The position numbers and the translations under genes are program-made. From NCBI RefSeq assembly GCF_018977255.1, contig NW_024704742.1, positions 29,886,001 to 29,950,000 of the forward strand: DNA of 64,000 bases. Reading direction: 5' to 3'. The stretch comes from Callorhinchus milii. Taxonomy: Eukaryota. This document shows, in pieces, positions 3,439-60,483 of the stretch (position 1 is the stretch's first letter; every line of letters begins with the position of its first letter). Below the pieces are notes generated by a model. That model searched no databases. It was not told the origin of the DNA and worked only from the letters and a program-made list of their open reading frames with translations.

Positions 3439-3766
3439 ATAATAATAATAATAATAATAATCCTTGCATTTGATATAGCGCTTTTCACGTCGGGAGGACA
3501 TCCCAAAGCGCTTCACAGAACACACTGTAAAGTGAATTGACTGTATATTTGTGGGCGAACGCGGCAGCCAATTGCGCACAGCAATGTCCCACAAACAGTC
3601 ATGGATTGAAAATGACCAATTTATTATTGTTTTTTTTGGTTTTGGAGGGATTATTATTAGGCGTGTGGAGTAAGGAAACTTGCCCAAGGTTTCGCCCTCT
3701 GCCTGGAATTGAACTCAGGTCTCTCGCTTGCAAAGCGAGTGCTCAACCACTGAGCTACAGGACTCC
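3439..3766 (-). mobile_element. Full-length tRNA-derived SINE (tRNA head, partial Deu-like core, L2-type tail, (ATT)n)
   Basis: Pol III A box (TAGCTCAGTGG) and B box (GAGTTCAATTCC); near-identical to copies at 8231, 46276 and 56355. Confidence 0.9.
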
Positions 3767-20000: not shown

Positions 20001-22879
20001 TTCAGAAGAATTTCATAGCATAACATGAATGACAAGATAGTTAAAACAAATAACTTAAAAAGCTTCTTCACTTCTGAGAACTACTACAATGGACAGGAGC
20101 ATAAGCTGAAAAGTAATGGTCCATTTTGTAAACGAGCAGGTTCTGAATGGACCTCAATTGGAGTGTTAGTCTGAAAGCACTGAAATTGGACACAAACCTC
20201 TGTGGGGGTGGCGGGGTGGGTAAGCTTGGTCTCCACGGAGCTGAACTGGCTCCAAGGTGACATGTTTGGCAACAGCATGTCAGAATTGTGCTGAACCTCT
20301 GTGGTGGTCTTGATAGTTCAGTTCCTGAGTCAGGTGGGTCCATAGTACTCCAGGACACTGCTGATGGCAGCACAGCAAGCCTGGCTCATTGGCAGGATGT
20401 AAAAAGGCAGACCAGCCACTGGGGTCAGGAACTCTCAAGGGAGAGTGCCCATTCCATTCCAACAAACATTTCTGGAATTTCCACGTGCAGATGGGATGCA
20501 TGGAACTGTATTTGGTTTGGATACTTTTAAGCATGATGATTTCCGCATGTGTCAAGAAATCCGCTGACCAAAAAGGTCCAAAGAATATTAAAATACTTAC
20601 TGAACAATTAATGGCTCATCATTAAAGACAAAAGGCTTCTTCAGCAAAGCTGAAATAGCATGGTGTTTTGCTTTTGATTTCAGCACCAGACCTTTATCTC
20701 CAGACACTTGATTTTCCTTCAATTCCTCTACCGTCCATCTTCCTATAAAAGGAATAAACATGAATCAAATGAGAATAGAGACAATATAGAGACAATATAC
20801 AAACACAATTAAAAAGTTAGCTCTGGAGCTTTGTGTTGGACGAAGTTAAATTAATGAAGCCATAAACATTTTAAATTTACAATGCTGGTCAGCATGTGAA
20901 AGAGGAAAATTAGTTAACATTTCAGTTTCCATGGTCAGAACTGAAACAATAGGCTGGGAAAGCTCCAATAATGGAGGTCTGGTCAAAAAAAAGCATCAGG
21001 AAGCTGCTCACAAAATTATTACACTGTGGCTGCTGATGGGTCATTAACAGATTGTAAAACACTGTTCATGGAACATTTAGGCATAAAAACAGTGGATAAA
21101 AGAAGAGAACTCCGGTATATATTAAAAAACTGCCGAAAATTAAGACCAGTATATCTTGATGTAGAAATTCTCATTCTTCAAAATACCTTCAGAAAATAAA
21201 GCTTCCAAAATAAGCCTGAAGACTTAAGAATTTTCCAAAGTTTGGGACAATCTTAAATATTAAGACTACGATTGACATTTTTTCACTCAGTAAAGGTGCA
21301 TCCCAACTCCCAGGGCCCTCTAAATGATAATTGTTAAAAGTTCTGGGGCACAATCTACAGGTCTTCTTGTGCTTGTTTTTACATTTTAATAAAATCTCAA
21401 CTGCAGTGCTTCACAGGAACACTGTATATATCCACATCAGTGAACTGAATGCAATGAAAGAATTTCTCCGCTGTGGTTTCTGCACTCCCACTCCACTGAA
21501 TTGGATATGTACAGGGTTCCGGTGTGTACTGGAATATAATGGCAATCAGATTGGTTTTCAGGTTGCATTGACTCCACTCTTCTCGCTTGCTACCCCAGAC
21601 TTAAAATACAGTACAGTACTTCCATCTCATCTTTATGTGCTTCCAAAATTTGAGCTAGAAAGAATGGACCTCCAGATAACCATCATTCCATGGACTGTCG
21701 TTCGTTGTCGATTGGAAACAACAGAATACAGAATATTGTGGAAACATTTATTTCTGGTATTCCTTCGTTTGTGTCCTTCAAAAGTATTTACTCCTGCAGT
21801 ATTACTCTCAAAACAGCATGATCACCATAACTAACAATTATAAAAAATTTACCCAAACAATTCTTACCATCATATTTTGCAATATCGTCATCTACATCTT
21901 CTTTCTTTGTTTTGGACAATACCCATCTTTAGAATGAAACACAAAGTGAGTGGAAGGTGATTGATAATGAGTATTTGTTCCCAGATTTAATATCAGAATA
22001 TTTGTTCACTAATGCAGAAGGCATTGACATCTCTTAGTAGAATTGAATATTTCTTAATCAGCTTGGTGCAAATGAGAATTCCTACCCCTCTAAATTCCCT
22101 CCATCAAATGTTTCAGCGAAGTAAACCTCTCCAGTAGGGACAGGAGTCTTGTAGTTCATCTGCAGATTTAGACCAATACCAGTAATTTATATTGTACAGT
22201 AAAAAGTGACTTTCACAAGTATTTGTAAGACAAGATTGGTTATTTAAAAAATTAAGAATGAAACGGTTTACAAATTGTGGAGACTAGACTAGATGAATAA
22301 CATTACTGACTGTTTAAAACAAAATAGAATTTGGTATTAAACACTAAAAATATCTGCTTAACAGTTTCACTTCATCATCTTGATTGACTTCAAGATCCTC
22401 GCCGTTCCCTATCTTGTTTCTTCTTTTACCCGCTCTTCTGCTTATCTAACTTTGTCTGCTAAAGGTCCACTGCCTTCTCCGTCACCCTCAATAGCCCAGC
22501 CTTCAACTACTATTTCCTACTTGTTAACTTTGACCTTCCCATCTGACTTTCACTGCGTCAGACCCCATCATTGTAATGCAAAGATGTTATCCTACGTGAA
22601 GGGTGCTACATAAATGCGAAATATGTTTTGTTCCCTTCAAAATATTTGAATAAATGGATCTGTTGTTTGTCAATAAAACGTGCCGTTTGCACTTTGCACA
22701 AAATATTCAAAATAAACAATCACATTCAATGTAGCTTTACTAGTCTTTGTTTCACTTTCAGTGTTCTTTTCTTCAAGCTCTTCCACATCCACTTCTCCAT
22801 CTTCCTCCTCTTCTTCAGCCCAGACGACTGCTGTTATGAGCAACAGTCCCAGAAACAATGGCAGACATTTCAACCTCAT
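7409..22879 (-). CDS. CLGN: Calmegin (calnexin-family ER lectin chaperone), complete spliced CDS of 14 exons: join(22879-22724,22159-22086,21926-21868,20742-20601,18091-18010,16656-16464,14160-13971,13835-13722,13206-13050,11923-11708,10640-10521,10337-10217,9271-9165,7489-7409); 603 aa
   Basis: All exons have GT-AG boundaries and compatible phases; total 1812 nt. Contains a signal peptide, CGGAYLKLL and IMFGPDKCG calreticulin-family motifs, KPEDW P-domain repeats, a TM segment ending FCWP, an acidic tail and the C-terminus ...[18 protein letters not shown]. Residues [20 protein letters not shown] and RKKKVRKE, plus the adjacent same-strand MGAT4 gene, favour CLGN over CANX. Confidence 0.92.
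7947..8016 (+). repeat. (GA)n microsatellite in the last CLGN intron
   Basis: Directly visible. Confidence 0.95.
8231..8540 (+). mobile_element. Full-length tRNA-derived SINE, same family
   Basis: GGAGTCCTGT..CTCAGTGGTTAGAGCAC head; ...GCGCTATATCAAATGCAAGG(ATT)n tail. Confidence 0.9.
8750..9080 (-). mobile_element. CR1 LINE 3' fragment
   Basis: Translation [39 protein letters not shown]...FKTEIDRFL is the typical CR1 ORF2 C-terminus. Confidence 0.88.
9165..9271 (-). CDS. CLGN: CLGN acidic-tail exon (...[17 protein letters not shown])
   Basis: 107 nt, CAG/GTTAG; phase-compatible; ends in SEDE. Confidence 0.85.
9689..9955 (+). mobile_element. L2-clade LINE 3' end
   Basis: [17 protein letters not shown]...[10 protein letters not shown]; tail GGCGCTATATAAATCCAAG(TTG)n; near-identical to 42959-43220. 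Confidence 0.85.
10217..10337 (-). CDS. CLGN: CLGN cytosolic-tail exon ([23 protein letters not shown]...)
   Basis: 121 nt, [14 protein letters not shown] motif and acidic run. Confidence 0.88.
10521..10640 (-). CDS. CLGN: CLGN transmembrane exon ([40 protein letters not shown])
   Basis: 120 nt, CAG/GTAGG; EERPWLW followed by a hydrophobic TM segment. Confidence 0.93.
11708..11923 (-). CDS. CLGN: CLGN exon ([16 protein letters not shown]...[18 protein letters not shown]...ASANE)
   Basis: 216 nt, CAG/GTAAA. Confidence 0.95.
13050..13206 (-). CDS. CLGN: CLGN exon ([27 protein letters not shown]...NPKYQ)
   Basis: 157 nt, TAG/GTATT; P-domain tip and type-2 repeats. Confidence 0.95.
13722..13835 (-). 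CDS. CLGN: CLGN exon ([38 protein letters not shown])
   Basis: 114 nt, TAG/GTAAT; P-domain repeats. Confidence 0.95.
13971..14160 (-). CDS. CLGN: CLGN exon ([13 protein letters not shown]...[22 protein letters not shown])
   Basis: 190 nt, TAG/GTGAG; P-domain type-1 repeats. Confidence 0.95.
16464..16656 (-). CDS. CLGN: CLGN exon ([33 protein letters not shown]...THLYTL)
   Basis: 193 nt, [16 protein letters not shown] motif. Confidence 0.95.
18010..18091 (-). CDS. CLGN: CLGN exon ([27 protein letters not shown])
   Basis: 82 nt, CAG/GTAAG; calreticulin-family CGGAY motif. Confidence 0.95.
20240..20450 (+). repeat. Unclassified interspersed repeat; other copies at ~26827-26990 (+) and ~30640-30715 (-)
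   Basis: Shared blocks TGAACTGGCTCCAAGGTG, CAGGACACTGCTGATG and CTGGCTCAT(T/C)GGCAGGA. Confidence 0.75.
20601..20742 (-). CDS. CLGN: CLGN exon ([30 protein letters not shown]...PLIVQ)
   Basis: 142 nt, TAG/GTAAG boundaries. Confidence 0.94.
21868..21926 (-). CDS. CLGN: CLGN exon ([20 protein letters not shown])
   Basis: 59 nt, AAG/GTAAG boundaries. Confidence 0.93.
22086..22159 (-). CDS. CLGN: CLGN exon ([25 protein letters not shown])
   Basis: 74 nt, CAG/GTAGG boundaries, calnexin-family sequence. Confidence 0.93.
22724..22879 (-). CDS. CLGN: CLGN coding exon 1 (signal peptide + acidic N-terminus, [27 protein letters not shown]...KATLN)
   Basis: ATG at 22879, acceptor CAG ending at 22889, donor GTGATT at 22723; hydrophobic signal peptide. 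Confidence 0.88.
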
Positions 22880-24689
22880 ATTGATTCCCTGCGCATAGAG
22901 AAGATACAGAAGGCTATTTCAACAATAAGTATACATTTGAAGCAGGAAATCACATAAGTTGCTGCACAAGATTAGAAAATGTAAAAATTTTGTTTATAAA
23001 GATATTGAAAACATTTATAAACCAATCTGTCCAATACTTTGCAAATATGAACATTCTGTAGTTTCCATAATAATAGGGTTATTCTTAATTACCCTCGTAA
23101 GATTATAGTGAATGATCCAGTAGCATTTATGCTGTATAATAATAATAATACTTTCATTTGATATAGCACTTTTCACGTCTACTAGACGTCTCAAAGTGCT
23201 TCACAGAATATACTGTAAAGTGAATTGACTGTATATTTGTGGGCGAAACACTGCAGCCAATTGGGCACAGCAGTATAAGGAATAGTTAATATACAAGGCA
23301 AGAGACTATTTACAGTAATTTATTAGCTTCAAAACACACAGCCGCTACACTTTACAGCAACTAGCTGTAAAACACTGAGATGTTTCAACATGATAAAGTA
23401 CTATATCAAGCACAATTAGTATTATATTCTGATTAGTTTACACTGTTGGAATGCAAAGTTGGATTTATACTTCTTGCTTCTAATTGTTCTTGCCCAGGGC
23501 CTGAAGTCTCTGCACATGTGCAAGGCTTTATTTACTCACTTATTTACTTTAGATTGAAGAGCTAAATCATTTTCCCTATGGCAGAGATATCTCCAATCAA
23601 GAAAATAGTGGTGCCTGCTCAGGTGGACGCTAAAGACCCTATTTGAAAAGAGAATAGGATCTGGACAGGCAACACTGAGTAATCTGACTGTCCTGGCCTG
23701 ATTAAATATAAAATATTGACAATAATAATAATAATAATAATCCTTGCATTTGATATAGCGCTTTTCACGTCAGGAGGACGTCCCAAAGCGCTTCACAGAA
23801 CACACTGTAAAGTGAATTGACTGTATATTTGTGGGCAAACGCGGCAGCCAATTGCGCACAGCAATGTCCCACAAACAGACAAGCTAGAAAGAACAATACT
23901 AACATTCTTTGGTGTGGTTGAAATCTTTCAATTAATATTTTTATTTTAACAGGGAATGCATATAGAGGAGGAAGCAGAGAGAAAGATCCTCTAGTGGATA
24001 AGGGAGAAATTTTCTTCTCTTTTCGAATAGGATCTTTAACATCCACTTGAACAGGCAGATGGGACCTCCCTCAGTTGATCATCTCATCCAAAGGACGGCA
24101 CCTCCAACAATGCAACCCCCCCCCACCCCGCCTTGGAGTGTCAGCTCTCCGACAATGTGAGCTCAAGGCCCGACGTGGGGCTCGAACCCACAATCTCTGA
24201 CTCAGGCGAGAGTGCTGCCAACCGAGCAAGCAAGACTCCTGGAGGTAAGTTGAACCTAGAGGTCAACACAAGTTTGGGAGAAGAGAGATTTCAAATTTGA
24301 GAAGCATAATATACATTAGCATGTTAGCAGTTACAGACACAGTCACTTTCATGGACCCTATTAAAAACTGTTTCTACACCCAATTTTTGCTCCAATCTTA
24401 CGGCACTGATGCAGTTATACTGCACGTACATGCAGTATAACTGCATCAGTTGTTCCCCCGACCCGAGCTGGCCCTCCCTCAAAATGCCCCCCTCCCTGCA
24501 ACTCTCCCGCTCTGTTCTTCTCTCTCTCCGCCTCCTATCTCTGCTTGACCCCCCCCACTGCGTCCCGCTGCTCCAGCCTGGGAATCCTCCACCGGGCTCA
24601 TCGTGGCACTTGGCGCTGGCTGTCCAGCAGCAGCCACACCGACTGCCCCACTCCCCACTACCGCCGCAAGTCACCCTGGATCCTGACCC

Positions 24690-29614: not shown

Positions 29615-30270
29615 GGGGGGCGGGGTTTACACGCCGAGGGCGGGGCTACGCCAATAGAGGGGCGGGGTTACGTGGAGGGAGGGGCGGGGTCGCGCGAAGA
29701 GGGCGGGGCTACGCCAAGAGAGGGGCGGGGTTACGTGGAGGGAGGGGCGGGGTCGCCCGAAGAGGGCGGGGCTACGCCAAGAGAGGGGCGGGGTCGCGCT
29801 GGGAGAGGGGCGGGGTCGCGTGGGGAGAGGGGCGGGGTCGCGTGGGGAGAGGGGCGGGGTCACGCGGGGAGAGGGACGGGGTCGCGCGGGGAGAGGGGCG
29901 GGGTCGCGCGGGAGAGGGGCGGGGTCGCGCGGGGAGAGTGGCGGGGTCGCGTGGGGAGAGGGGCGGGGTCGCGCGGGGAGAGGGGCGGGGTCGCGCGGGG
30001 AGAGGGGCGGGGTCACGCGGGGAGAGGGACGGGGTCGCGCGGGGAGAGGGGCGGGTGTCGCGTGGGGAGAGGGGCGGGGTTACGTGGAGGGAGGGGCGGG
30101 GTCGCGCGGGGGAGGGGCGGGGTCGCGCGGGAGAGGGCGGGGTCGCGCGGGGAGAGGGGCGGGGTCGCGCGGGGAGAGGGGCGGGGTCGCGCGGGGAGAG
30201 GGGCGGGGTCGCGCGGGGAGAGGGGCGGGGTCGCGCGGGGGGAGCGCGGGGCTACACCAAGAGGGCGGGG
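29615..30270 (+). repeat. GC-rich minisatellite, ~21-22 bp unit GGGGAGAGGGGCGGGGTCGCGC, about 30 copies
   Basis: Directly visible tandem repeat. Confidence 0.95.
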
Positions 30271-37160: not shown

Positions 37161-37621
37161 TTTGGAGTCAAAAATACTTTGGAGGAGAGGAAGGAAACTC
37201 AGCTTACGCGTATTTGCAAGCACAGGCATGACACCAACCTTAACTTTAAAGATAATTCTAAAATCAAGTTGGATGAATTGTTTTCAAAGTTCATTAACCA
37301 CTTGGCAAGAAATTCAAGTTTTCATTAAAATACACTATGCCTTTCTTGTTTTAAAAGCCTCCTGGTGAGAGTAAAGGTTTGCTGAAACAAACACAGGAAA
37401 ACAAATTCAGCATATTTATAAATAAGTTCAACTTGTTTTTAAAAGCTCATGTTTAAATTATTTGCATACTTTCAATGTCTCTCCACAATCAATTAGTCCT
37501 AAAGTTTACTCTGGCTCAGGTTGGCTGAACATGACCGAATTGTCCTTCTAATGTGGCTCCACTAGACGGCGTAGTTGTGGAAGAAATCCATCTCCATCAA
37601 AAAAAACTCCATAGTTGTTGT

Positions 37622-38164
37622 ATGTCAAAAGAGGATACAGAAAGGAGGAAGGAGATGACCTCTTAAGAAAAAATCATTGGGCTTCAGATTTTCAAATTAC
37701 GTTTCGTGTAATTATCCTTGGTTGAAGAGACAATACTGTTGGTGTATTTCTGGAAGGTAGTGGAATCTCCTTCTTGTAGTTATGTAGCTGCCTTAATGAG
37801 TATCTGAGAAAACATGCAAGCAGAATTTATTTTTAACAGCTATTTGTGATTTTTGTTGCAGACAGTAAGGGAACCTATTCTTCCCTTCCCTCTCCACACA
37901 CCACACACACAAACAATATAATGATTATCTAAAGGTCTGAAAAACACCCAGTATTTAATTATTCAAAATAATTGGTTAGCAATGTGTATACAAATAACAT
38001 ATTTACATCAACTTTATATGTAATATATATATGATATATTATAATATGATAATGTTAACTTTCACCCAAACAATTACATGACATGTAATTTGAAAATCTG
38101 AAGCCTAATGATTTTTTTCTTAAGAGGCCATCTCCTTACTCCTTTCTGTATCCTCTTTTGTCAT
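37622..38164. repeat. Inverted repeat with ~93-bp arms (37622-37714 / 38071-38164) flanking the start of the MGAT4 terminal exon
   Basis: CAAAAGAGGATACAGAAAGGAG...CTCTTAAGAAAAAATCATT.GGCTTCAGATTTTCAAATTAC and its reverse complement. Confidence 0.93.
37780..37803 (-). CDS. MGAT4D: MGAT4 terminal coding exon (ILIKAAT*)
   Basis: Pyrimidine tract + CAG acceptor, TAA at 37782-37780; resembles the short IxxKKA-type terminal exon of MGAT4A/B. Confidence 0.8.
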   Translation of the reverse strand: MLIKAAT

Positions 38165-41100
38165 TCACCATTAGAAAAAAAACAGAAAATCACAGGTTTA
38201 AAATTGGTTGGCTTTTCAGTGTTGCTTCACCAGATTCACTCAACCTGTGTTAAACCTGTGAAGTGGCACTGAACTTTTCAATAATCATAGCAGTGCTGAA
38301 ATCTTTGATACTGGTTGCGGGTCCAACCATTGGGCTAAACCTGAAGAGATTCACTCTGTAGACAGACTTCTGCTATTGACTGGAGATTGCGATTTTTTTT
38401 AGCAAGATTCAATGTATTAAAATAGAAAAGGTGTGAACTTGTAAGACCAATTTGTGGATTGTGGAAATGTCTTGATTTCAAGCCAGTTCTTCTTAAGAAC
38501 TGCAAAAAACAGTCTCCTGATTAAGACTAGATTGAAGAATTTTCTGAGTGATCTTAAATTATAACACAAAATAACTCTTGACTTAGAGTCAATTCTATTA
38601 AGAAACATAGCAATTTTCACCCCTACATTTTAGCATGTCTGTGGAATTGTGGTGGGATTTCTGCCGGTAAATTCTTTGTGCTCTTTTCCTAGCAGAAAAT
38701 CATGATAAAACAATGAGCATTTCACCCTAATAGCTTTGTAAGCATTCTGTGAAACAAGTTAAATTTTACCTCACTCAGTAATACCCAAACAGGGGATTCT
38801 GTCTGAATAGTTAACCGAATAGCTTCAATCTTTCCAATCGATGTCTCGATTTCTCCTTCTGCAACTCCATTCACAAATGAACCTTAATGCATAAATGAAA
38901 CATAGTTATTATGTCACTCACAAGGAAAATAGTATGCCATATTCAACTGCCTGCAAACTTAAATTGGTAACAAGTGGAAGAGTTAGTTTGGCCATGAACC
39001 ATTGCATTGAGGTACAGACCCAATCCTTCTCACCTCCAGTTCATGCATTTCGACCACCATCTGACATGTTTCCTCTGGACAAACTTTATAAGAGTTGTAA
39101 TAAACAACAATAACAAATTACATTTGTTTTGCGCCTTTCATGTTGGGAGGACGTCACAAGTCGCTGGACAGTCAGATATTTGGACCCAAGCAGGGGTTTG
39201 GTATCAGGAGGGGTGGAGGGCAGGGAGGGTAGGAGTAAGAGGGTGGCCAAATGTGTGGTCGAAGAGGAGGATCGTGCGATGGGCCTTGAAGGAGACAAAG
39301 GAGGGAGCGAGGCAAAGTGACTGTGGGATGGAGTTCCAAAGGGTGGGGGGCAGAGAGGCTGAAGGCCTGACTGCTGATGGTGGAGCGGAGCGGGCTGGAG
39401 TCTGCTGAGTGGAGGGAGCAGACAGGTTGACATGGTGTTAGCAGGTCACAGAGGTAGGAAGGAGCAAAGCCATGGAGGGCTTTGAAGGAGAGGACGAGGA
39501 TTTTGAACTCTATCCTCTGGGGGATGAGGAACCAGGCGAGGGTGGGATGATAGGATCACGGAGCCTGGTGTGGTAGAGAACATGAGTTGCAGAGTTCTGG
39601 ATGATCTACAGCTTGTGGACGGAAGAGTTACAAAAGCAGGGAGTTGGCGTAGTCGAGCCATAAAATTAAATGAATTTGGGCCAGTTCTAGTCATTTCTGA
39701 ATGGTACAATCAGAGATGTCCATAATCTGTTATGAACTGGGCAATTTTGCTCAAAGCCCATAAATGATATAAACATATCTTGGTAAATAAGGAAACAGCT
39801 ATTTAACTGTAAATCCACAAATTAAATGTTCAAATCCAGAAAATAAATGTATTTCAATTTTGTTTGTGAAATGAGAGCACATTAAAGGACAAATTTGACT
39901 GAAAATTCATATTCTTCACTGTGAATGCCTAGAGTACAATTCCACATGTTCTCACATGCTTTTGAAATAAAAACATTTTTTCTCATGATTCTGGCTGATA
40001 GTTGTGTGTGGGTGTGTGTCTGTTGGTGCACACGCCACATGTGTGTATATTTACGTGCATACAGTACCATACACATAATGTGTGTATATTGTGTTGATGT
40101 TTAATGTTGGGGAAAAAGAAAAAAACACATCATTGCCTTCTCGGGCTCCAATGGGCAATGAGAAGCAAGGTCAGCTTCTCTGCTGCTGACAGTCCAGGCA
40201 ATCCTTTGCCCCAGTCTTGTTCATTTGAATTTGTTATTCATTTCACAATGCTCCCTCTCATTAATGCAAAGTCATAATAGGTGTAATCCAATCTCTCAAA
40301 GTGAAGTCCAGCATTTTACAATCGTAAAACTCCAAAAACGTTTGAAAAGGACTGGCTAATCTCCCATGGGGAAGCTGACTGACAAAAATGTTGACAAATC
40401 CTCTTCTGCAACTGTTTATGGTCTACACTGTTTGGATATCAGTGCGGAGGCCTGAAATTCACTTGGTCTTAACCTTAAGTCCACCATCTGAAAATATAAG
40501 ATTGTGTAGAATTTGGGAAAGATCTTGGCCTCTCGGAAATTCTAAGAACTACTTTTCCATAGTTTTTTAAATCAATTTTGGAACACCTGCTTCCAATTTA
40601 AGAATGAATTTGTGAATTTTCCAAAATTATTCCCAATCTTACATTTCAAGACAATGGATTTAAGATTAAGACCATGACAAACATCACACTTCTGATCTTG
40701 TAATCTCTAAATTAACACTTTTTTTATTAGTATAGATAGATATTTAGAAAATAGTCAATCATGTCCCAATGTAACTGCAAAACTCAAATTAATTCAATAC
40801 ATTGGGGTGTAAAACATTTTTGTAGACTCCCTCTGTGTCCATGATGATACAATGATACAATTTGAGACCAGAGGTATAAGAAATGGTGATGTATTATTTC
40901 CATGTGAGAAAAAACGCTGCTAAAAATATAGCCCAATATTATCTGTTCCTGTGTTGGCATGACAGAGAATTGGTGATACTTCAAGTTCAAAGGTAGTCCA
41001 AAATCAGAAGGAACCAGAGGGATGCAGAGGATGAATATTCACCTCCCAGCATGGCAATTCACCTCCTAAAATGTGAGATGTGCAGTACCAGCAGTAAATG

Positions 41101-44100
41101 GTGATGTACAGAGGCATTGGAAACAATGAGAGACCATCGATAAACATGGATGCATATCATCATTGATACTGAGGAGGGCTTCCCTGGACCCATGACACAT
41201 GCTTTGAGTAACATTCTAGGAGAGTGGTGCTCACCTTCAGATGGATACAAGCAAGATAGTTGACTGATGATATTGGCAAGCCTTTTATTTCATCAAGTCA
41301 CTATCTTCAAACTTCGAAATGCTTTGGAAAATCTTGGAATAAAATGTCATAGATCAAATAGGATTTGTGTCAAAGCTGTAAGATTTTGGCAGTGTAGTAA
41401 ATTTCCCAAATCCTAGATTCTCACATTTGCTAATCTAGCGGATGTACTGCAAGTCGTATCATGCTCGGTACTTGACATGTGTTCTAAAATGAAACCGTTG
41501 CCAAAAGCTTTCAAAAGCTGATGTGTTATGAGCATTCAAGTATCTGGTAATCTCGTCAATCTCAATAGTATTGCCTTCTCCTTCTCTTTGACACATTCTA
41601 AGAATAGCAATGATACTGGATCATACCCTTTGTAGATAGACTTCACAATAATCACAGTACAGATTTTCATATTGATGTGTCAATTGCTCTATAGCTTTGG
41701 TATAGAGTACAACATACATAAGGTTGCATCAATTTGCAGTATATCCTGTGAAGCGTTTTGAGGTACCTTGGTTACATGATAAGGCACTATATCAAATGAA
41801 AGAGTAATTATTACTTCTCCCATGTATGAACAATGAATTTAAATGAATCATCCTTTGTGTGATTCCATCTGGCATGGAAGAGGCATTCATATGTGCAGTC
41901 CCACATATATGACACGATTAGGCAGTCTTATATAGAGAGGGAAGCTTTGAGGCTCAGGTATTCTACATTGTAGGGTGAAAACTGTAAGAGTCCCAACAGT
42001 TTTTGAAAAAGATTTGAGATTCCTGATGTAAGTGAATGCACATTACAGCTGAGTATCTGCAGGATTGGGTTTTTGAGAACCCTTTTGAAAGTCCACATTA
42101 GATCTCAATCTTACAATTTGTCACCTTGGCTTTAATGCCATTATCAAGCCTAATAGCAGTAATGTTGGGTGCTGTGCAAATGTTGAACCATTGTTGGTGT
42201 CTGTGCAGATAATTATTCTTTCTGGACACGGTGTGCTGAGTTCCCCAGATTAACCGGGTACACTAGGAGCTCAATGAAGGTATTGATGACGGGTATGGTT
42301 CTTGCTGGAGAAGAACAACACTCTCACCAGTTTTCCCACACTTTTACACCAGGGCATGACCGCAGATCCAGCCAGCTCAACGGATGGTAATTGTAACAAT
42401 ATGGACCCATCCTGGGACATGCAGGTCTTTGCAATAATGGTATTCTATACACATTGGGCTCTCATATGCAACAATTTGGTAATGTGACTCACTTTAGTGA
42501 CTGAGTTGCAAAGAATGCCAATAAACTTAAACAGAAGAACTCTGCTCTGACAGAATGCACTACACCAATTAATGATAGAAATCAGCATTTAGTGCCTCCT
42601 TTTAAGATAGCTGGATATCAGAAATGCAAACATATTTAAAGAATTTCCTTCTGTGGAGCATTATTCTTCAACAGCTTAGATTATTTTTAGAAAAGTTTCT
42701 TACCTATTTTTAAATATCCATCTTTTGTTATTTTGTATTTGGGGTCTTTGACACTAAAGTCTTGCAACGATTTTTTCTCAAGGACACTTCTCTGAAAGGT
42801 TGACAGAAAAGAGGAGTCAAAGGGAATATTAAGACAATATCAAACAAATTTCATTTTCCAACGTAGGTTAAAAATGCGTTCCACAGAGATCACTGTGTAT
42901 GCTCTATTGTATTGTGTATAATGGTCAGAAATAGGAACTCAGGTTATTTTTTCCCAATCAACAACAACAACAACTTGGATTTATATAATGCCCTCCACGC
43001 CAGACGGTGTCTCAGAGCGCTTTACAGTTTCGGATCCCGGGACCGAACCAGGGGGAGGGGGAGAAAGGTGACCGAAGGCGTGGTCGAAAAGAAAGGTCTT
43101 CAGCAGAGACCTGAAAATGGGAAGGGAGGGAGCGAGACGAAGGGAGTGAGGAAGGCAGTTCCAGAGCCTCGGGGCATAGTGGCTGAAAGCACGACCGCCG
43201 AGGGTGGAGCGGAGGACGAAGGCAACGGGTGCTGTTTTGAGGAGAGAGGAGGTCAGAGAGGTAGGGGTATGCAGAGGAGCACAGAGACTTGAATACGAGG
43301 GTGAGGATCTTGAAGTCGAACCTCTCTGGGATAGGGAGCCAGTGCAGTCTGGCAAGGACTGGGGTGATCGGGGAGCGGAGTTTCAATCGGTTCTGAAGCC
43401 AAGTGTCCTCAACTTCTGCCACAGCTGAGAATGAGCACAGACCAGATTATCTCTGTGGGTAATATGAATTTAGAACAGTGAGGGGAGGGACATCTAGATC
43501 TTTGAACAAAGCAATCTGTTTAACTTTGTTTCCCAACAAAGGACTGTAGATGGAAGGAATTTTTTTTTTACTTTTGATGCAGATGAACCTGGAATTATTT
43601 TGATAAGATTCAACAACAGAAATATTCAGTATTTATCAAATTCCATGATACTCTATGTCAAAGCATTAAAAGACCAAGTTGGAAGTTGACATTTCAGTGC
43701 AAATTTTACGTGCGCAAAAGGATGGAAATGTGAAATAATTCTTAATGATTAAATTATCCAGAGCATTGATGTGACGTTGCATAAATGTTTCCCTTGCCAA
43801 GTAGGCAGGTTAGCCAGGAGTTTCTGACATTTAAACATGAAATTACTTACGTTTGCTGGTAAAACCTCTACTGTTGTATTGAAAAGTTTGTCTCCCGGGT
43901 GTTCTACATTCCCACTTCTAAAGACGTATCTGGCAAAGAAAACAGAAATGAGAAGTAAACAAGGCAGAAACTACACAAAATATAATCCTTATCACATCAC
44001 AACAATAACTTGCACTGATATAGTGCTTTTCTTGTGAGACAAACATCTCAATATCACTTCAATGCTTGTAATTCTGAGGATTCATGGCTCCCAGAACTGT

Positions 44101-47100
44101 ATAGCGTCTCCGCTGAATTCAATGGAACACTCAGCTCCTAACCCAAAATACATTACCACCCCCTGATCTCCAACAAAAAAAATTGCATAAGTCTAGGTAA
44201 GTCCGTGTCCAATTGGGAGTGTGCTTTCAGCTTTTCTTGATATTTATTGATTTATGGCATAAACGTGTTTGTTAAAGATCCCATGAACCTATTTGTAAAG
44301 AGAATGGAGTTTTCCAGTGATCTAGTCAACAATCATCAGACAAAATTGGTCACTCACTTCATGGCTGTTTATGGAATATTGCTGGAAATTTTTTGCCCTG
44401 TATATCTCCAAATACGGAGTATATCCTGTGAAGTATATTGAGCTGTCCTCCTGATATGAAAGGTACTATATCAAATGCAAGGATTATTTTTTATTATTAT
44501 TATCCTGAACGGCAGAGGGAACACTGAAGTTTGAATATTATTAATGGATAACTTCCCCTGTTTGAAAGAGTGGCCTTAGCATGATAATTTATTTTGCTAG
44601 CTGATCATAAAGATTGGCCACCACTTAGACTTTAGACTTAGTTCGGAGTCCCAATGTGGAATTTGAACCGACAAGCTCCTGACTCAGAGACGGGAATGCT
44701 TCCAACTGAGCCAGGCTGACACATATAGCATTGTTTGACACCGAGCAAAAGTGAAAGGAGCAGAGACTGTAGGCATAGTCGAAGAGGAAGTCTTCAGGTG
44801 CGATCTGAAAATGAGCAAAGAGGGAATAAGATGGACGGATGGAGGCAGGTAGTTCCAGAGTGTCTGATGGTAGAGTAGGCGAGGCAAGAAACATGCAGAC
44901 GGCCTATTTGCACTGTCGCTACTTGTGTGACTGCTGGAAAAAAGGACGGTAACTCAAGGAGCATTTTTTCCAGGAAATCTCCCATACAGCATACAGGGTC
45001 ACGGGACTTCAGGTGCATTGGAAACCCAAGCTCAAGCCTGGAGAAAATGCCATCCACAATGCAGGCATCCTTGGCTTGGGCAGACCCCTGCACCCTGAGA
45101 TAAAAGAAGTAACATAACGTCATCTATCCAGCTTCTGTGCCATTGTGACAAGTTCATAAAAATAACAATCCGTGCTAACCTTTCCACTTTCAATGGCTGG
45201 AAGAATTTAAACTGGATGAAGTCCCCGGCCTCAGGAACAAATGCCCAGAAGAAATTCTCGCCTTGGTAGGCCTTTGCCAGATTGTATTGCTGATAGACTT
45301 TCAAGCTGGTGTTCAGTTCCGCCATGGGATTTGAGTGCCCTCTATGTAATTGTTGTTTCCCAAAGTCCTTATCCTTTATTTTAAAAAAAATAGTCAGAAT
45401 TAGAACTGGAAATTCAAAAGAGATACTTTGAACAGATAGAAACAAGAACAACTTGCATTTACGTGATGCTCTTTATGTAGTATAGAATTTCGGAGCACCG
45501 AAACATGTACATTGGTGTATATCTTCAGCTGCGATCACTGTATTTTCCAAAGTCAATATTGAAAAACATAGTTCACTATTTAAATATCCCAAATATCCCT
45601 ACTATCCTGACACAATGTGCTTTGGTTAAGAGGAAAATTGTAAGTCACAACTATTTTTAATACCATTACTATCTGAAAGACGAACACGTGGGACAATTTA
45701 CAATGGATTTGCCCGTATCGCTTCTCACATTTTATTTGATATTTTATTTCATATTTTAATTCACTGATCAAGATTGGAGCTAATTGCTACATGCTGTTAC
45801 TTTGTCATAAGTAAATAGTATCAGATATTTGATGCAATGGCATCAAGCCTCAATCAATCTGCATACATTTTGTAATAACGGGTTTGACTGCAATACTGCA
45901 TTTGATCAGACTTGGAGCCTATATAACGAATTAAAACTGCATAGCAGTGATTTGCATCAGACATGGCTAAAAATCTAAGCTAAACATTAGCTTAAACATG
46001 GATGAAGAGAAGGTAGACAATAGGACTGAATGGATTGGGCTAAATGGTTTTCTGTTCTGTAAATTTCTATGGGCCTCTGGCTGATTAAAGGAAAAAAAGG
46101 TGCTGCAACTTTAAGGGAACATTTCAAATATTGAACCTCTTTGTTTTACTGCTCCTCATATCCACCTGAAGGAATGTGGATGAGATAATAAGCCATGATG
46201 CCATTTTACTTCTAAAGCTATCAGTAACTTATGAAAGCCAGATCAAATTCAATTTAGATGGTGCGACATTCTTGTGGAGTCCTGCAGCTCAGTGATTAGA
46301 GCACTCGCTTTGCAAGTGAGAGACCTGAGTTCAATTCCCGGCAGGGCGAAACCTTGGACAAGTTTCCTTACTCCACACACCTAATAATAATCCCTCCAAA
46401 ACCAAAACCAATAATAAATTGGTCATTTTCAATCCATGACTGTTTGTGGGACATTGCTGTGCGCAATTGGCTGCCGCGTTCGCCCACAAATATACAGTCA
46501 ATTCACTTTACAGTATATTCTGTGAAGCGCTTTGGGACGTCCTCCCGACGTGAAAAGCGCTATATCAAATGCAAGGATTATTATTATTATTCTTTCTGTT
46601 TACTCCATGCTGTGCATTGAATATATATTTTTTAAAAACTTACTTTTAGAGGCTGCACTTTTCCAGCCAGTGAAGAGTGAGTTCCCACATGCTGGAAGAG
46701 GGAAGGCTTGTAACGTATTCGTAAATTGGCCTTTTGTCTGTCACAATGTTTCTGAAGGAAAGAAAAAAAATGCATGAAGCAATGCTTAAGGTGATAATAA
46801 TAATAATCCTTGCATTTGATGTAGCGCTTTTCACGTCTTCTAGACATCTCAAAGCGCTTCACAGAATATGCTGTAAAGTGAATTGACTGTATATTTGTGG
46901 GCGAAACACGGATAACAATAATAATCCTTGCATTTCATACAGAGACTTATATCATCGAAAAGTCTCAAAGCATTTCACAGGATTTTTCTGTGATGTATAA
47001 CGGCTGTGTTTAATAATAATAATACTAACAATCCTTATTTGTAGGCAAACTCGACAGTTGTATCAGGTATGCTACTGTTATGAGGCCCAGAATTAACAGA

Positions 47101-50100: not shown

Positions 50101-53100
50101 CCAAACCCTCCCCCCACCTTCCTCTCGGACATTTCCACCCTCCTACCTTCCCTCTCCCTCTGCTCCAAATATCTCCTCATCCTAGGTGACTTCAACCTGC
50201 ACTTCACCCCTCCTGCTCTATCTCCGCTGACTTCTCCTCTCTCCTCCTTAATGAAACAGAGGACGTGAGGGCAGAAGGTTTGGGTAGGTCTAATTATTAT
50301 TGTTGTTATAATAATGAATGTGATGAAGCTGGTGGGAGGTAAAGAACACAAAATGGAGAATTGGCTAAAATACAAAGGGCTTTGAATTACACTGATTGAT
50401 ATCTACCACAGAACTGTGAAGGCAAGCAGGGATAATAGGGTATAAATTGCAATATCACCAAAAAGATTTGTAAATAACGAATCCTGGATGTGTCATATCA
50501 TAATGATAATTCTTGCATTATATATCATATACTTGATCACTTATTCAAAACGTCTCAAATCGCTTCACAGGATTTAATGAGATATACTGACTGTGTATTT
50601 TGTGGGCAAACACGGCAGCCAATTTACACACAGCAATGTCCCATAAACAGCCTGGAAGTGAATTACTAACTTTATCAAGAGGATTGTTGGCCAGGACACC
50701 GGCAGAAACTCTTTTCTCTTTTTGAATATTAGCCTCTTTAATGTCACAACATATCTTGAACAAATAGATTGGGCCTTGTTTTAACATCACATCCAAAGGA
50801 TGACAGCTACAACAATGCACCTCTACCCCACCACTGACCTGGAATGTCATCCTAAACGATGTACTGACATAATTCATGACTCAGGAGCGCTATCAACTGA
50901 GCTCAGACTGAAAACTGACAAATGGGAAGCAAAGGGAACTGGTGTACAATTTGAAAAGCAAAAAGCTACACAGCATAAAGCAGACAAGCAAAACATTTAA
51001 CTGGCCTGAGGTCATCACCAACCATTCCTTGCTCAGTATAAAATACACATCATCTTATTGGGTAAAAGAGTATATGTATAAAGTATGTATATAAAGAACA
51101 AGATAGCTAGTTTGGTTGGTCTGTCTTCTAGCCAGAGGTTAGGAGCACAAAACCTGAAGGTTCAGCCACTGATAATGGCACTGAGAGGGCGGAGAACTCA
51201 CAACAGACCCAAGTTAGCTGAGTGGAGTGGACGAGCAGAGGAGTGAGTTAGGAGAAGATCAGAGAGACAGGGAGGAGCTAGGGTATGAAAGGATTTATAG
51301 GTGAAGGCCACGATTTTGAAATCAATCCGATGGGGACGGGGAAGTACCCTTTTCCATCACTATTCTATTATGCCTTAAACACGTGCTTAACATCTGAATT
51401 CCACATCAAAGAATCCGTATGTTTTAAAAATTAACCAAATTGTTCACTGTGTTTACAATCCTTATTCTCTATCCCCGTCCCCCACCCCATTATCATCCAC
51501 AGTCTGACTTGGAGGAGCTGATGTCGTCTTTCTTCATTAACTGAAGACAGATACCCTTTTAGCTGATCAATGTTTAGTGCTGAAATGGACACAAGATTGA
51601 AAAAAGTACAGTTGACAGATGTTTATTGCATGTTACATTTGGTGTTGGTGCCTGAGGCACCGATCAAGAAAGAGAAACAAACTTACGGCATCTTTCTCAG
51701 GATTGCACACCTTCACCCATAATATGTGGTCGAGTAACCAGTCTATAGGCTTGTCCTTGTAGAACATGATAATGAATTCCACTATTAATGGCAGATCAGC
51801 ATTCTTGAACAACTTTCCTGGATCAAAACAGTAAAGAAATTATTTTTAATATAACCATTCCATACATTTCTGGGCTTATGTAAACCTCCTGAAGAGCCTC
51901 CTGGATCTCTCTGTCATGTTCGACACAGTTGACCACGCCATCCTCCTCCACCGCCTCTCCTCCCTCAACCACCTTAGTGGGACCGCACTCGCATAGTTGG
52001 ATACCTACTTAACCAACTGCCTCCATCTCATCTCTGCAAATGGTTTCTCCTCCTGCCCCCACCCAGTCACCTGCAGGTTTCAAATCTCTTCACTCTCTGG
52101 CACCTCCCTACCTCCCCACACCCCCAATCCACCACCCGGCGCCTCCGCTCGACTGGCACCGGCCTCCTGCTCGTCCCTCGCACCCCCCACCCTACCGTCG
52201 GAGCTCGCGCTTTCAGCCACTAAGCCCCAAATTCTGGAACTCTCTCCTTCAATCCCTCCGCCTTGCCCCTGCTCTCCCCTTTTTCAAGTTCAGCCTGAAG
52301 ACCTTCCTCTTCGACCATGCTTACTGCCACCTCCCCTCCTCCATCACCCACCCACCGGCTCGGAGTCAGGCTCCACCACTGTTTAGAGCTCTGAGACACT
52401 GCCCTGTGCATGGAAGGCGCTGTATAAGTGTAAGTTGTTGTTGTTTTTGTAAACATTGTACTAACCCACAACCATCGACATTCTGTGAAATTAATTCCTA
52501 ATCTACAGATAACTATATAATAATTTGATATAGCATCTTACTTATTACGTTGTTTAAACATCTTAAAGTACTTCGTAGAATTGACTGTAAGAAAGAGGGC
52601 CTCCTGCTCGGCCTCCTCTCCTCAGCTGCTGACACTATCATCATTCATGGCTGCACTAGTCACCTCACCGAGCCAATCCAAAACCTCAGTGTGCTTTTCG
52701 ACCCTCAGCTATGTTTCGAACTCTTCATTCATGCCGTGACCCATTCTGCCTTTCCACACTTCTGCAACATTGTCTGCCTCTGCAACTGCCACTCACTGCA
52801 GGCCACCGAGACCCTGATCCACGTTTTCATTACGTCCTGGCTTGACTACGCAAACTGCCTGTTCACTGGACTTCCCAACTCTTCCCCCACCCCACAGATT
52901 ATTCAGAACTCTGCAGCTCGTGTCCTCTCCTACATCAGGCTCCGGAAACCTATCATCCCGTTCTTGCCTGGCTTCACTGGCTCCCCATTCCTCAGAAAAT
53001 CAAGTACAAAACCCTTGTTCTTACCTTCAAGGCCCTCCACGGTCTTGCTCCCCCCTAACCTCTCCGACCTCAGAACCCCATATCAGCCTGTCCGTTCCCT

Positions 53101-59100: not shown

Positions 59101-60483
59101 AAACCCAGGCTCCTAAAGGTTTCTGAAATCTGTTTCATGTTTAAAGATTTGCAATATTGCAGTAGCTATGAAAATGGAGGATGTTGCGGCTCAAATGTCA
59201 GCATTCATTTGTGGAAGTAGACTTCAATTTGTTCCTTAAAAGCTACACCCTATTGAGGATGTAAAATGTACGAAACTTGATAGCATTTCTGCAAACTGAA
59301 TTTTGCTCCAAATTCTGAAATACAGTACAGCTCTTTTGTATTTAAAGTACAAAAATCCTACAAAATAACTCTCTGTTTTATAATATGATTAACAGTTAGC
59401 ATTTTCTTTTGGAAACAATTGCGAACGAAAAACACAAGCCTTTTTGTATTTTTGTTAAGGCACGAAACGTGAATGAAGACCTTGTTTCCAATATCAAGAC
59501 ACGGCTGAATATACTTAGAAATGAAAATCTATTTCTATTTCATTTTGTCAGCTCATACAAAAGGCAACTCAATCTCTGTTAAAATTCTGGACAATGTGAG
59601 ATTTCAGATGTCATTGTTGGCCGATGACAACAGCACCCAAAATGAAAGCCAATGTGAGATTTGAGTCAAGATTCCACCTGGGTCTTGGTTTTCTCTACAT
59701 AATGTCTCAGTGAAGATCCTTCCACTTCGACTGTGCTTACGGTCACCTCCTCCCTCCCCCTGGCTCGGTGTCGGGCTCTGCCGTTAAGCGCTCTGAGACA
59801 CTGACCCGCGTGGAGCACTATATAAATGCAAATTGTTGTTGTAGTGCCACTGTCACATCTCAAACAAAATTGAGATTGATTCCAGAGGCTGGAGGGAAAA
59901 AACGTTGGACGATTCCAGAGGCTGGACGTCCGAGAAGTTGTGTGTGATCTTATACAGTCAGTGCTGGCAGTCTGTGGGGATATCACAGCTGAGCTGGATC
60001 CTGTCCCACACTCATCTACACTTGATCACTTTTTAGTAGAGGCCAATGATAGTGACCTAAATTAGGTTCACGTGTTTCTTCCCTAACCTGAGGTGCTGAA
60101 GCCTTACTGCTCTACTCCCCCGCTGAGATTATCCAATTCATCCCAGGCCTGGGAACTTCTCCAGTCTGTATGGCATGGTTTTGCATGAGATCTATCCTGA
60201 GCCAACTGAGAAAGTGATTTCATAAAAGTTCATTACAGTTCATTAAAGACTTTCTGAGAAATAAGAATATTTAAAGCAGTTTTCAAATACCTACTGAACA
60301 TTCAGTCCCAAATGGACCCACTTCCACATATAAAAATGATCTGACTACAGTATAGTTAGTTGTTTTACCAATAAATCCAAGCTGGGAAAACTCCAGGATC
60401 ATCCAATCATCAGAAGGCTGCTGCTGTGCAAAGTTTTTTATGGTCTGTAAATAGTTGTTTTTTGCTATAATATCATCCTCTAA
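37780..60483 (-). CDS. MGAT4D: Alpha-1,3-mannosyl-glycoprotein 4-beta-N-acetylglucosaminyltransferase (MGAT4/GnT-IV family, MGAT4D by position), 5'-partial: join(60483-60369,51817-51687,46751-46644,45373-45180,43929-43851,42791-42704,38882-38770,37803-37780); 283 aa + stop
   Basis: Eight GT-AG exons (115,131,108,194,79,88,113,24 nt) splice in frame. Motifs [63 protein letters not shown] and SPVWVLLSE. Family is certain; the D assignment rests on lying immediately upstream of CLGN on the same strand, and the sequence itself resembles MGAT4A/B. Confidence 0.8.
38770..38882 (-). CDS. MGAT4D: MGAT4 lectin-domain exon ([37 protein letters not shown])
   Basis: 113 nt, AAG/GTAAA. Confidence 0.9.
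39103..39660 (-). mobile_element. L2-clade LINE 3' fragment, degenerate
   Basis: Similar to the other L2 3' ends, with (TTG)n tail. Confidence 0.75.
42704..42791 (-). CDS. MGAT4D: MGAT4 lectin-domain exon ([30 protein letters not shown])
   Basis: 88 nt, CAG/GTAAG; DGYxxIG motif. Confidence 0.85.
42959..43425 (-). mobile_element. L2-clade LINE 3' fragment
   Basis: [30 protein letters not shown] and [13 protein letters not shown] motifs; (TTG)n tail. Confidence 0.88.
43851..43929 (-). CDS. MGAT4D: MGAT4 lectin-domain exon ([26 protein letters not shown])
   Basis: 79 nt, CAG/GTAAG; not in the ORF track, read by hand. Confidence 0.9.
45180..45373 (-). CDS. MGAT4D: MGAT4 exon, linker + start of lectin domain ([28 protein letters not shown]...[25 protein letters not shown])
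   Basis: 194 nt, AAG/GTTAG. Confidence 0.9.
46276..46591 (+). mobile_element. Full-length tRNA-derived SINE, same family
   Basis: Head with A/B boxes, conserved body and (ATT)n tail. Confidence 0.9.
46644..46751 (-). CDS. MGAT4D: MGAT4 exon ([36 protein letters not shown])
   Basis: 108 nt, CAG/GTAAG. Confidence 0.9.
46794..46909 (-). mobile_element. 5'-truncated SINE copy, ~40 nt upstream of the 108-nt MGAT4 exon
   Basis: Tail sequence reverse-complementary to 46480-46591. Confidence 0.88.
49690..50250 (+). mobile_element. L2/CR1-type LINE APE-endonuclease fragment, frameshifted
   Basis: [16 protein letters not shown]..., PPGYTFHH..R and ILGDFNLH endonuclease motifs across frames. Confidence 0.8.
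51687..51817 (-). CDS. MGAT4D: MGAT4 exon ([43 protein letters not shown])
   Basis: 131 nt, CAG/GTAAG. Confidence 0.9.
51895..52445 (+). mobile_element. L2-clade LINE fragment (RT piece joined to 3' end)
   Basis: [22 protein letters not shown]-like motif, then FWNSL...[10 protein letters not shown] and the L2 tail. Confidence 0.8.
52600..53407 (+). mobile_element. L2-clade LINE 3' fragment
   Basis: [48 protein letters not shown]2 C-terminal motifs. Confidence 0.88.
56355..56663 (-). mobile_element. Full-length tRNA-derived SINE, same family
   Basis: Reverse-complement match to the copy at 46276-46591. Confidence 0.9.
60369..60483 (-). CDS. MGAT4D: MGAT4 exon ([39 protein letters not shown])
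   Basis: 115 nt, CAG/GTAAA; EDD catalytic motif. Confidence 0.9.

Follow-up and report, generated by a model that had tools for sequence, protein, structure and literature searches.

The MGAT4A, MGAT4B, and MGAT4D genes are ohnologs from two duplications of the entire genome (2R) (Morigo et al., 2025, iScience, PMC12616123), and within the MGAT4A/B/D (ABD) subgroup of family GT54, MGAT4D counts as the third member of 2R origin. Full-length MGAT4D, with a CBM94 lectin domain and 15–16 coding exons, is described from fish, amphibians, birds, and snakes, the fish gene being “previously known as MGAT4B-like” (PMC12616123). Medaka MGAT4D with its lectin domain is an active GnT-IV and yields the MGAT4A product; the 3′ exons were lost in the mammalian ancestor, and mouse MGAT4D does not become active when a lectin domain from medaka MGAT4D, MGAT4A, or MGAT4B is added to it (PMC12616123). 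Mammalian MGAT4D is reported to have no transferase activity and to act as an inhibitor of MGAT1 (PMC12616123; PMC9296478); the mammalian gene is specific to germ cells (PMC7005853). Here, we analyze a stretch of 64,000 nucleotides of the elephant shark Callorhinchus milii (C1:29886001–29950000 in an assembly of ~992 Mb; below, “the window”), which holds, on the minus strand, the 3′ half of an MGAT4-type gene.

We give a probability of about 0.8 to the reading that this gene is the elephant-shark MGAT4D ortholog, full-length, spliced, and most likely acting as a GnT-IV in the manner of medaka MGAT4D, MGAT4A, and MGAT4B. Transcription and the predicted splicing are borne out; gene order and elimination point to its orthology to mammalian MGAT4D, while catalytic activity is suggested by motif conservation and, by analogy, by the published medaka assay. 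The locus is an ordinary, misnamed MGAT4D ortholog, apparently functional. An earlier note, made from the sequence alone, had proposed an ancestral, full-length, and probably catalytic MGAT4D at this place. Our analysis supports this, the activity being a likely one by analogy, and the proposal is already in print: the ancestral full-length state of MGAT4D and the loss of its 3′ exons in mammals are known and published with enzyme assays (PMC12616123). The gene model is pre-existing as well, and the significance of the locus lies mostly in annotation. What it adds is a holocephalan MGAT4D, so that full-length genes are now seen in both branches of the cartilaginous fishes, and a compact five-gene synteny block, in which the correspondence to the mammalian locus as its ortholog is readily apparent.

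Gene structure and transcripts

On C1, the MGAT4 gene has 15 coding exons over ~93 kb of the minus strand, with 7 of them beyond the window end; this agrees with the multi-exon structure of the ABD subgroup (~14–16 coding exons, vs. 2–3 in the CEFG subgroup). Exons were mapped by a script that enumerates AG/GT-bordered exons and requires the joined translation to match an annotated protein; the two annotated proteins are P0001 (519 amino acids, “MGAT4B isoform X2” at NCBI) and P0002 (545 amino acids, “MGAT4B” in UniRef). An AG acceptor precedes all eight window exons, and a GT donor follows every one except the last. They are listed below in the order of transcription, together with the RNA contigs that cover them (given as run and record):

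60369..60483, minus strand: coding exon of 115 nt that carries the donor/metal motif LEDD (DxD type) and the GFIG part of motif 4, approximately residues 263–301 of P0002; AG/GT-bounded, 100% match to P0002.
51687..51817, minus strand: coding exon (131 nt), catalytic domain (KLFKNADLP...CNPEKDA); splice mapping and X8 record 14.
46644..46751, minus strand: last catalytic coding exon (108 nt) with FQHVGTHSS (motif 5, HVGxH); X8 record 14 and X3 record 1.
45180..45373, minus strand: coding exon (194 nt), linker and start of the lectin domain (LKVYQQY with Tyr407; YQGENFFW with Trp423); X8 record 14 and X3 record 1.
43851..43929, minus strand: coding exon of 79 nt within the lectin domain, Asp458 being part of SGNVEHPGD; listed in X3 record 1 and implied by a 79-nt coordinate gap in X8 record 14.
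42704..42791, minus strand: coding exon (88 nt), variable loop of the lectin domain; X8 record 14 and X3 record 1.
38770..38882, minus strand: coding exon (113 nt), lectin domain with Trp533; X8 record 14.
37780..37803, minus strand: coding part (24 nt) of the last exon, ILIKAAT and the TAA stop; X8 record 14 and X7 record 6.
37500..37779, minus strand: 3′ untranslated region of at least this extent (the RNA contig continues below 37500); X8 record 14 and X7 record 6 are unbroken over 37500–37803.

The splice mapping reproduces exactly the five lectin exons of 194, 79, 88, 113, and 24 nt that had been read at 37780..45373, and the 283-residue peptide joined from the window in the earlier note is residues 263–545 of P0002, with all quoted strings present. 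Over the C-terminus of P0001, the joined window translation agrees at every residue; from P0002 it is one residue off (I/T). The difference lies in exon 51687–51817, at residue 312 of P0002, where the window and P0001 have Ile (LPLIVEF) and P0002 has Thr, reflecting either a polymorphism or the assembly version. A protein search with the 64-residue translation of the 194-nt exon, with 5 of 5 candidate proteins scored, gave 100% identity to Callorhinchus milii P0001 and P0002, followed by two Latimeria “MGAT4B-like” proteins at 72%.

Outside the window, the 5′ exons were mapped up to C1:29975490, and a membrane-anchor first exon (MRLRIANVLT...) was found on the minus strand at C1:30017088. It encodes MRLRIANVLTLLVLGAFLSLSLYVSWLNFK, which we read as an N-terminal membrane anchor of type II, the hydrophobic stretch being judged by eye. 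An alternative first exon, MTGN, near C1:29975859 (likewise outside the window) accounts for P0001, the anchorless isoform, which may be either real or a by-product of annotation; the anchor exon gives the P0002 form.

Three small runs and one genome-sized run (X9) were placed on positions 37500–52000 of the window. X8 record 14 (2248 nt) falls on 37500–37803, 38770–38880, 42702–42791, 45180–45372, 46643–46751, and 51687–51818, with consecutive record coordinates and the introns skipped; from record position 666 to 746, a stretch of 79 letters is unlisted and corresponds to the 79-nt exon. X3 record 1 (474 nt), which comes from a different study, falls on 46643–46730, 45180–45372, 43851–43929, and 42702–42791. 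In the genome-sized run X9, contigs cross the introns uninterrupted. Intronless MGAT4 matches in the assembly are only 33–39% identical, and there is no high-identity intronless copy to mimic a spliced contig. Since the contigs skip introns and the assembly holds no such copy, transcripts do carry the lectin exons joined to the catalytic ones by splicing; the evidence for this splicing is the contig-placement table only, the relevant exon–exon joints not being among the 15 joints listed, with 2493 more outside that list. The doubt raised in the earlier note, that the lectin exons might never be spliced, is answered by the RNA contigs of these two studies.

Domains, motifs, and predicted function

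The catalytic family PF04666 (Glyco_transf_54/MGAT4_cons) covers residues 110–384 (profile positions 4–280 of 280; 428.3 bits vs. a cut-off of 51.5), and PF23524 (the MGAT4A_C lectin domain) covers residues 398–538 at 129/129 profile positions (172.7 bits). Residues 387–545 are matched by two crystal structures of the lectin domain from mouse MGAT4A (7xtl, E = 2.1e-44; 7vmt, E = 2.8e-40). The lectin domain is complete, as had been claimed, and the agreement goes well beyond chance.

The catalytic motifs of the ABD subgroup are defined as GxPxxKR, FGDx6WR, EDD, GFIGKLF, and HVGxH (PMC12616123, section 11). Checked in a 42-row alignment against these definitions, the window protein keeps all five, as GVPTVKR, FGDTQQRVKWR, LEDD, GFIGKLF, and HVGTH; the earlier reading of LEDD and FQHVGTHSS as intact is thereby confirmed. 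Tyr407, Trp423, Asp458, and Trp533 correspond to mouse MGAT4A Y394, W410, D445, and W513, i.e., to the four residues of the MGAT4A lectin domain that contact N-acetylglucosamine (GlcNAc) (Nagae et al., 2022, PMC9296478), and all four are kept. In MGAT4A, the substitution D445A brings activity on free glycan down to ~62% (PMC9296478). Within motif 4, GKLF is seen in the D-type rows and in invertebrates, while GKMF is seen in MGAT4A (10/10 rows) and MGAT4B (9/10 rows); this character agrees with MGAT4D branching first.

The 545-residue product is predicted to consist of a membrane anchor, a stem, a GT-A catalytic domain with the EDD metal/donor motif, a linker, and a C-terminal CBM94 lectin domain. 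It would be a type II enzyme, probably located in the Golgi, whose GT-A domain works through the EDD motif together with a metal ion and UDP-GlcNAc and which, by analogy with the characterized enzymes, would transfer GlcNAc in β1–4 linkage to the α1–3 mannose arm of N-glycans; the CBM94 domain may bind GlcNAc-terminated branches and so tune the activity on glycoproteins.

The closest described system is non-mammalian MGAT4D (clade 3 of GT54 subgroup ABD; Scyliorhinus canicula, Pristis pectinata, Amblyraja radiata, Latimeria, medaka), with which the window gene shares a product of ~545 residues, the multi-exon structure, PF04666 with CBM94/PF23524, the strings EDD, GFIGKLF, and EHPGD, and an annotation of the “MGAT4B-like” kind. 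Table S1 of PMC12616123 classes the skate, sawfish, and catshark genes and Latimeria P0003 as MGAT4D, the latter being letter-for-letter Latcha_GT54_MGAT4D-A of that paper; the elephant-shark gene is absent from this table, whose only Callorhinchus row is an MGAT4F. As the earlier note had surmised for full-length orthologs, the shark and ray proteins are named “MGAT4B-like”; the elephant-shark database name is “MGAT4B”, not “B-like”. Full-length (531–538 residues) amphibian and sauropsid proteins are labeled “MGAT4D” by NCBI.

Mammalian MGAT4D (GnT1IP-L) has in common with the window gene the catalytic family PF04666 and the neighborhood of SCOC, CLGN-type, and ELMOD2-type genes. Its two representatives here, P0333 (383 residues) and P0364 (412 residues), were taken as MGAT4D from the wording of their names, their lengths, and the lack of PF23524. 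Unlike the window protein, to which they are only 32–35% identical, they stop after the catalytic domain, and their motifs 1 and 2 are degenerate, one of them also having LEDG, whereas all five motifs of the window protein are intact. Truncation of the GnT1IP type (10 coding exons, no linker or lectin domain) is not seen in the window gene, which has the lectin exons and splices them in. The earlier note derived the inhibitor role from truncation, which is too simple: mammals did lose the 3′ exons, but lectin-restored mouse MGAT4D is inactive (PMC12616123) and motifs 1 and 2 are degenerate in the two mammalian representatives. Because of these degenerate motifs (one with LEDG) and the inactive lectin chimeras in print (PMC12616123), the mammalian change was more than truncation.

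Relation to MGAT4A, MGAT4B, and mammalian MGAT4D

The assembly has three multi-exon MGAT4 loci of the ABD type, on C1, C13, and C4. The C4 locus is MGAT4A: its lectin exon is 100% identical to annotated Callorhinchus MGAT4A (P0122), and UNC-50 lies 26 kb away. The C13 locus encodes P0044 (UniRef “MGAT4B”) and is adjoined by a MamL-1 gene and a calnexin-type gene. Since the real MGAT4B lies on another chromosome (C13), the name “MGAT4B” at the C1 locus is a misnomer. MGAT4A and MGAT4B share architecture, exon pattern, and motifs with the window protein (identity 62–65% to MGAT4B and 54–59% to MGAT4A); the window gene differs from them in its separate locus, its position outside both clades, and its GKLF, as in the invertebrate homologs, vs. 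GKMF.

Gene order on C1 is MamL-1 (29826547), SCOC (DUF2205; 29881603), a calnexin-family gene (29897786–29906749), the MGAT4 gene, and an ELMO-domain gene (30037465). In the mammalian neighborhood, MAML3 presumably adjoins SCOC. The pig has ELMOD2, MGAT4D, CLGN, and SCOC in this neighborhood (PMC10741191), and human 4q31.1 has SCOC, CLGN, and MGAT4D (PMC11765965). The C1 order matches that of the mammalian MGAT4D neighborhood, with the paralog identity of the neighbors (calmegin or calnexin, ELMOD2 or ELMOD1) left at the family level. At that level, the earlier assignment of the gene to the MGAT4D position stands: MAML, SCOC, and the calnexin-family gene lie on one side and the ELMO-domain gene on the other. 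The neighbor within the window is:

9120..22918, minus strand: calnexin-family gene (CLGN position), neighbor of the MGAT4 gene; from open reading frames, with PF00262 at C1:29897786–29906749 and calnexin, not calreticulin, as best PDB match.

This gene runs from a signal-peptide exon near 22900 through acidic tail exons near 9100. A more specific name, calmegin, was tried, but the PDB matches of the same exon are calnexin for all three calnexin-type genes (C1, 106.5 bits; C13, 111.1; C15, 80.2) and name none of them; the ESM Atlas, used for one exon, returned “Calreticulin family” clusters only and was uninformative.

Two trees were built from rows hand-picked for taxonomic spread among the listed matches: tree 1 (50 rows) has three elephant-shark CEFG-type open frames as the outgroup, and tree 2 (42 rows) has three invertebrate homologs as the outgroup and also includes the two mammalian MGAT4D representatives. 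In both, the window protein and 8–9 shark and ray “MGAT4B-like” proteins form a clade with support 100/99. The C13 protein of the elephant shark falls inside the MGAT4B clade, whereas the window gene is left out of it (98/99 in tree 1, 100/99 in tree 2); the window gene is also outside the MGAT4A clade (91/100 in tree 2). The grouping within MGAT4A or MGAT4B that the earlier note had named, in combination with a CANX/SQSTM1 neighborhood, as fatal to its proposal is thus not what the trees give. In approximately unbiased (AU) tests, joining the shark clade to MGAT4A gives p = 0.00135 and joining it to MGAT4B gives p = 0.025; holding the 19 D-type rows together lowers the log-likelihood by 7.4 and is not rejected (p = 0.293). 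The mammalian MGAT4D pair stays together (100/100) on a stem of 1.4–2.0 changes per column, and its placement in tree 2 is unstable, consistent with the long-branch problem described in PMC12616123. Two further placements concern teleosts. The “B-like” rows of Scleropages and Sinocyclocheilus, considered as possible MGAT4D, fall inside the MGAT4B clade in tree 1 and are not MGAT4D; Alosa P0242 (named B or B-like) is a long branch outside MGAT4A and MGAT4B in tree 2 and is not confirmed as teleost MGAT4D.

Several observations weigh against an active MGAT4D ortholog, and we take them up with the alternatives to which they lend weight. The window gene may not be the ortholog of mammalian MGAT4D at all, belonging instead to an “MGAT4B-like” lineage of cartilaginous fishes that stems from an early duplication of MGAT4B or is a fourth 2R ohnolog surviving nowhere else; it would then be uninformative on the ancestry of the mammalian inhibitor. 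Both NCBI and UniRef name it MGAT4B, presumably because its identity to MGAT4B is as high as that to tetrapod MGAT4D, and in the catalytic domain higher (62–65% vs. 61–63% for the whole protein; 75–76% vs. 68–73% for the catalytic domain). A single clade of D-type proteins appears in neither free tree, both leaving the deep branching order of the shark D-like, sarcopterygian D, and mammalian D groups and of MGAT4A and MGAT4B unresolved, and the AU rejection of a join with MGAT4B is only marginal. Gene order is non-unique for two of the five markers, as a second pair of SCOC and calnexin-type genes, in the same relative orientation as on C1 and with a third, more divergent calnexin-type copy, is found at C15:2984033–2994745, and the C1 calnexin-type gene resembles the C13 copy (64–84% per exon over 6 exons) more than the one on C15 (52–69%). 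We nevertheless consider this lineage an unlikely explanation: with MGAT4A on C4 and MGAT4B on C13, the assembly has only three ABD-type loci; the C1 block has all five markers in the mammalian order, while C15 has two and no MGAT4 match; the MGAT4B clade that holds the elephant shark's own MGAT4B excludes the gene with high support in both trees; the AU test is less favorable to a join with MGAT4B than to a single D clade; and the skate, sawfish, and catshark equivalents are classed as MGAT4D by Morigo et al. (PMC12616123).

A full-length MGAT4D ortholog might also lack working GnT-IV activity, serving as a regulator of Golgi enzymes, as in mammals, or acting on other acceptors. The D lineage evolves faster than MGAT4A and MGAT4B (end branch 0.21–0.22 vs. 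a median of 0.06–0.09), long D branches are likewise noted in PMC12616123, and mammalian MGAT4D is an inactive inhibitor of MGAT1 (PMC12616123; PMC9296478). Moreover, three non-contact lectin positions depart slightly from the ABD consensus (motif 1, LKVYQQY, lacks the His; where the consensus has Asp, YQGENFFW has Asn and ESPVW has Glu), and we encountered no enzyme assay of a cartilaginous-fish MGAT4D in the literature. Such a loss of activity is nonetheless improbable, given the five catalytic motifs and four sugar-contact residues kept here, unlike in the two mammalian representatives, and the activity of medaka MGAT4D with MGAT4A specificity (PMC12616123). When compared with eight orthologs from sharks and rays, the catalytic domain is 79–85% identical, which suggests purifying selection, and the lectin domain 64–73%. 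It is very hard to believe that the gene model is an annotation artefact, or that its lectin exons have fallen out of use or are in decay. Nothing in favor of it was found, the sole caveat being that none of the runs listed is on record as RNA, eight small ones being flagged “RNA? (a guess)”, so that the RNA nature of the contigs rests on their being spliced; the open frame, the canonical splice sites, the identity of the translation to an annotated protein, the lectin-to-catalytic spliced contigs of two studies, and the absence of any intronless copy close enough to mimic them all speak against it. On balance, we retain the reading of the window gene as a full-length MGAT4D, most likely a GnT-IV.

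In one more speculative version, to which we attach little weight, the full-length MGAT4D of cartilaginous fishes would have two functions, working as a GnT-IV and, already at that stage, binding MGAT1 and holding it in check. The mammalian inhibitor would then be the leftover of an old regulatory role and not a product of truncation, and the C15 block of SCOC and calnexin-type genes could be the remnant of a fourth 2R paralogon minus its MGAT4 copy. The sections of PMC12616123 used here contain no MGAT1-inhibition test of a non-mammalian MGAT4D. More generally, the C15 pair may be either such a remnant or a later segmental copy; matches to the MGAT4 catalytic or lectin parts, ELMO, and MamL-1 were looked for near it, and none was found. 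SCOC was tried as a discriminator: the C1 exon is identical to human SCOC (4bwd) at 40/41 positions and the C15 exon at 41/41, and because both are near-identical to the human protein, SCOC exons cannot tell the C1 from the C15 block. There is a small chance that the orthology of these blocks is less simple than five genes in collinear order would suggest.

Other MGAT4 loci and repeats

Besides the three multi-exon loci, the genome has at least five intronless loci of the MGAT4C/F/G type with lectin domains (C19, C5, C17, C254, and C263), each a single open frame of 266–412 residues, with PF23524 found in four; the table of PMC12616123 has one Callorhinchus MGAT4F only, vs. these at least five C/F/G-type loci.

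Two G+C-rich tandem arrays lie between the 5′ end of the calnexin-family gene and the 3′ end of MGAT4D, one at 27051–29346 (54-nt unit, 44 copies, 91% matches) and the other at 29656–30251 (22-nt unit, 27.5 copies, 85% matches). They are the cause of the G+C peak of 0.59 at 28–30 kb of the window.

Matches to the tRNA family (Rfam RF00005, 40–56 bits) are seen at 3699–3760 (minus strand), 8233–8304 (plus), 46278–46349 (plus), and 56590–56661 (minus). They head a repeat that is frequent in the window introns and has a recurring open frame, with contig depth there reaching up to millions; this repeat looks like a tRNA-derived family of short interspersed elements.

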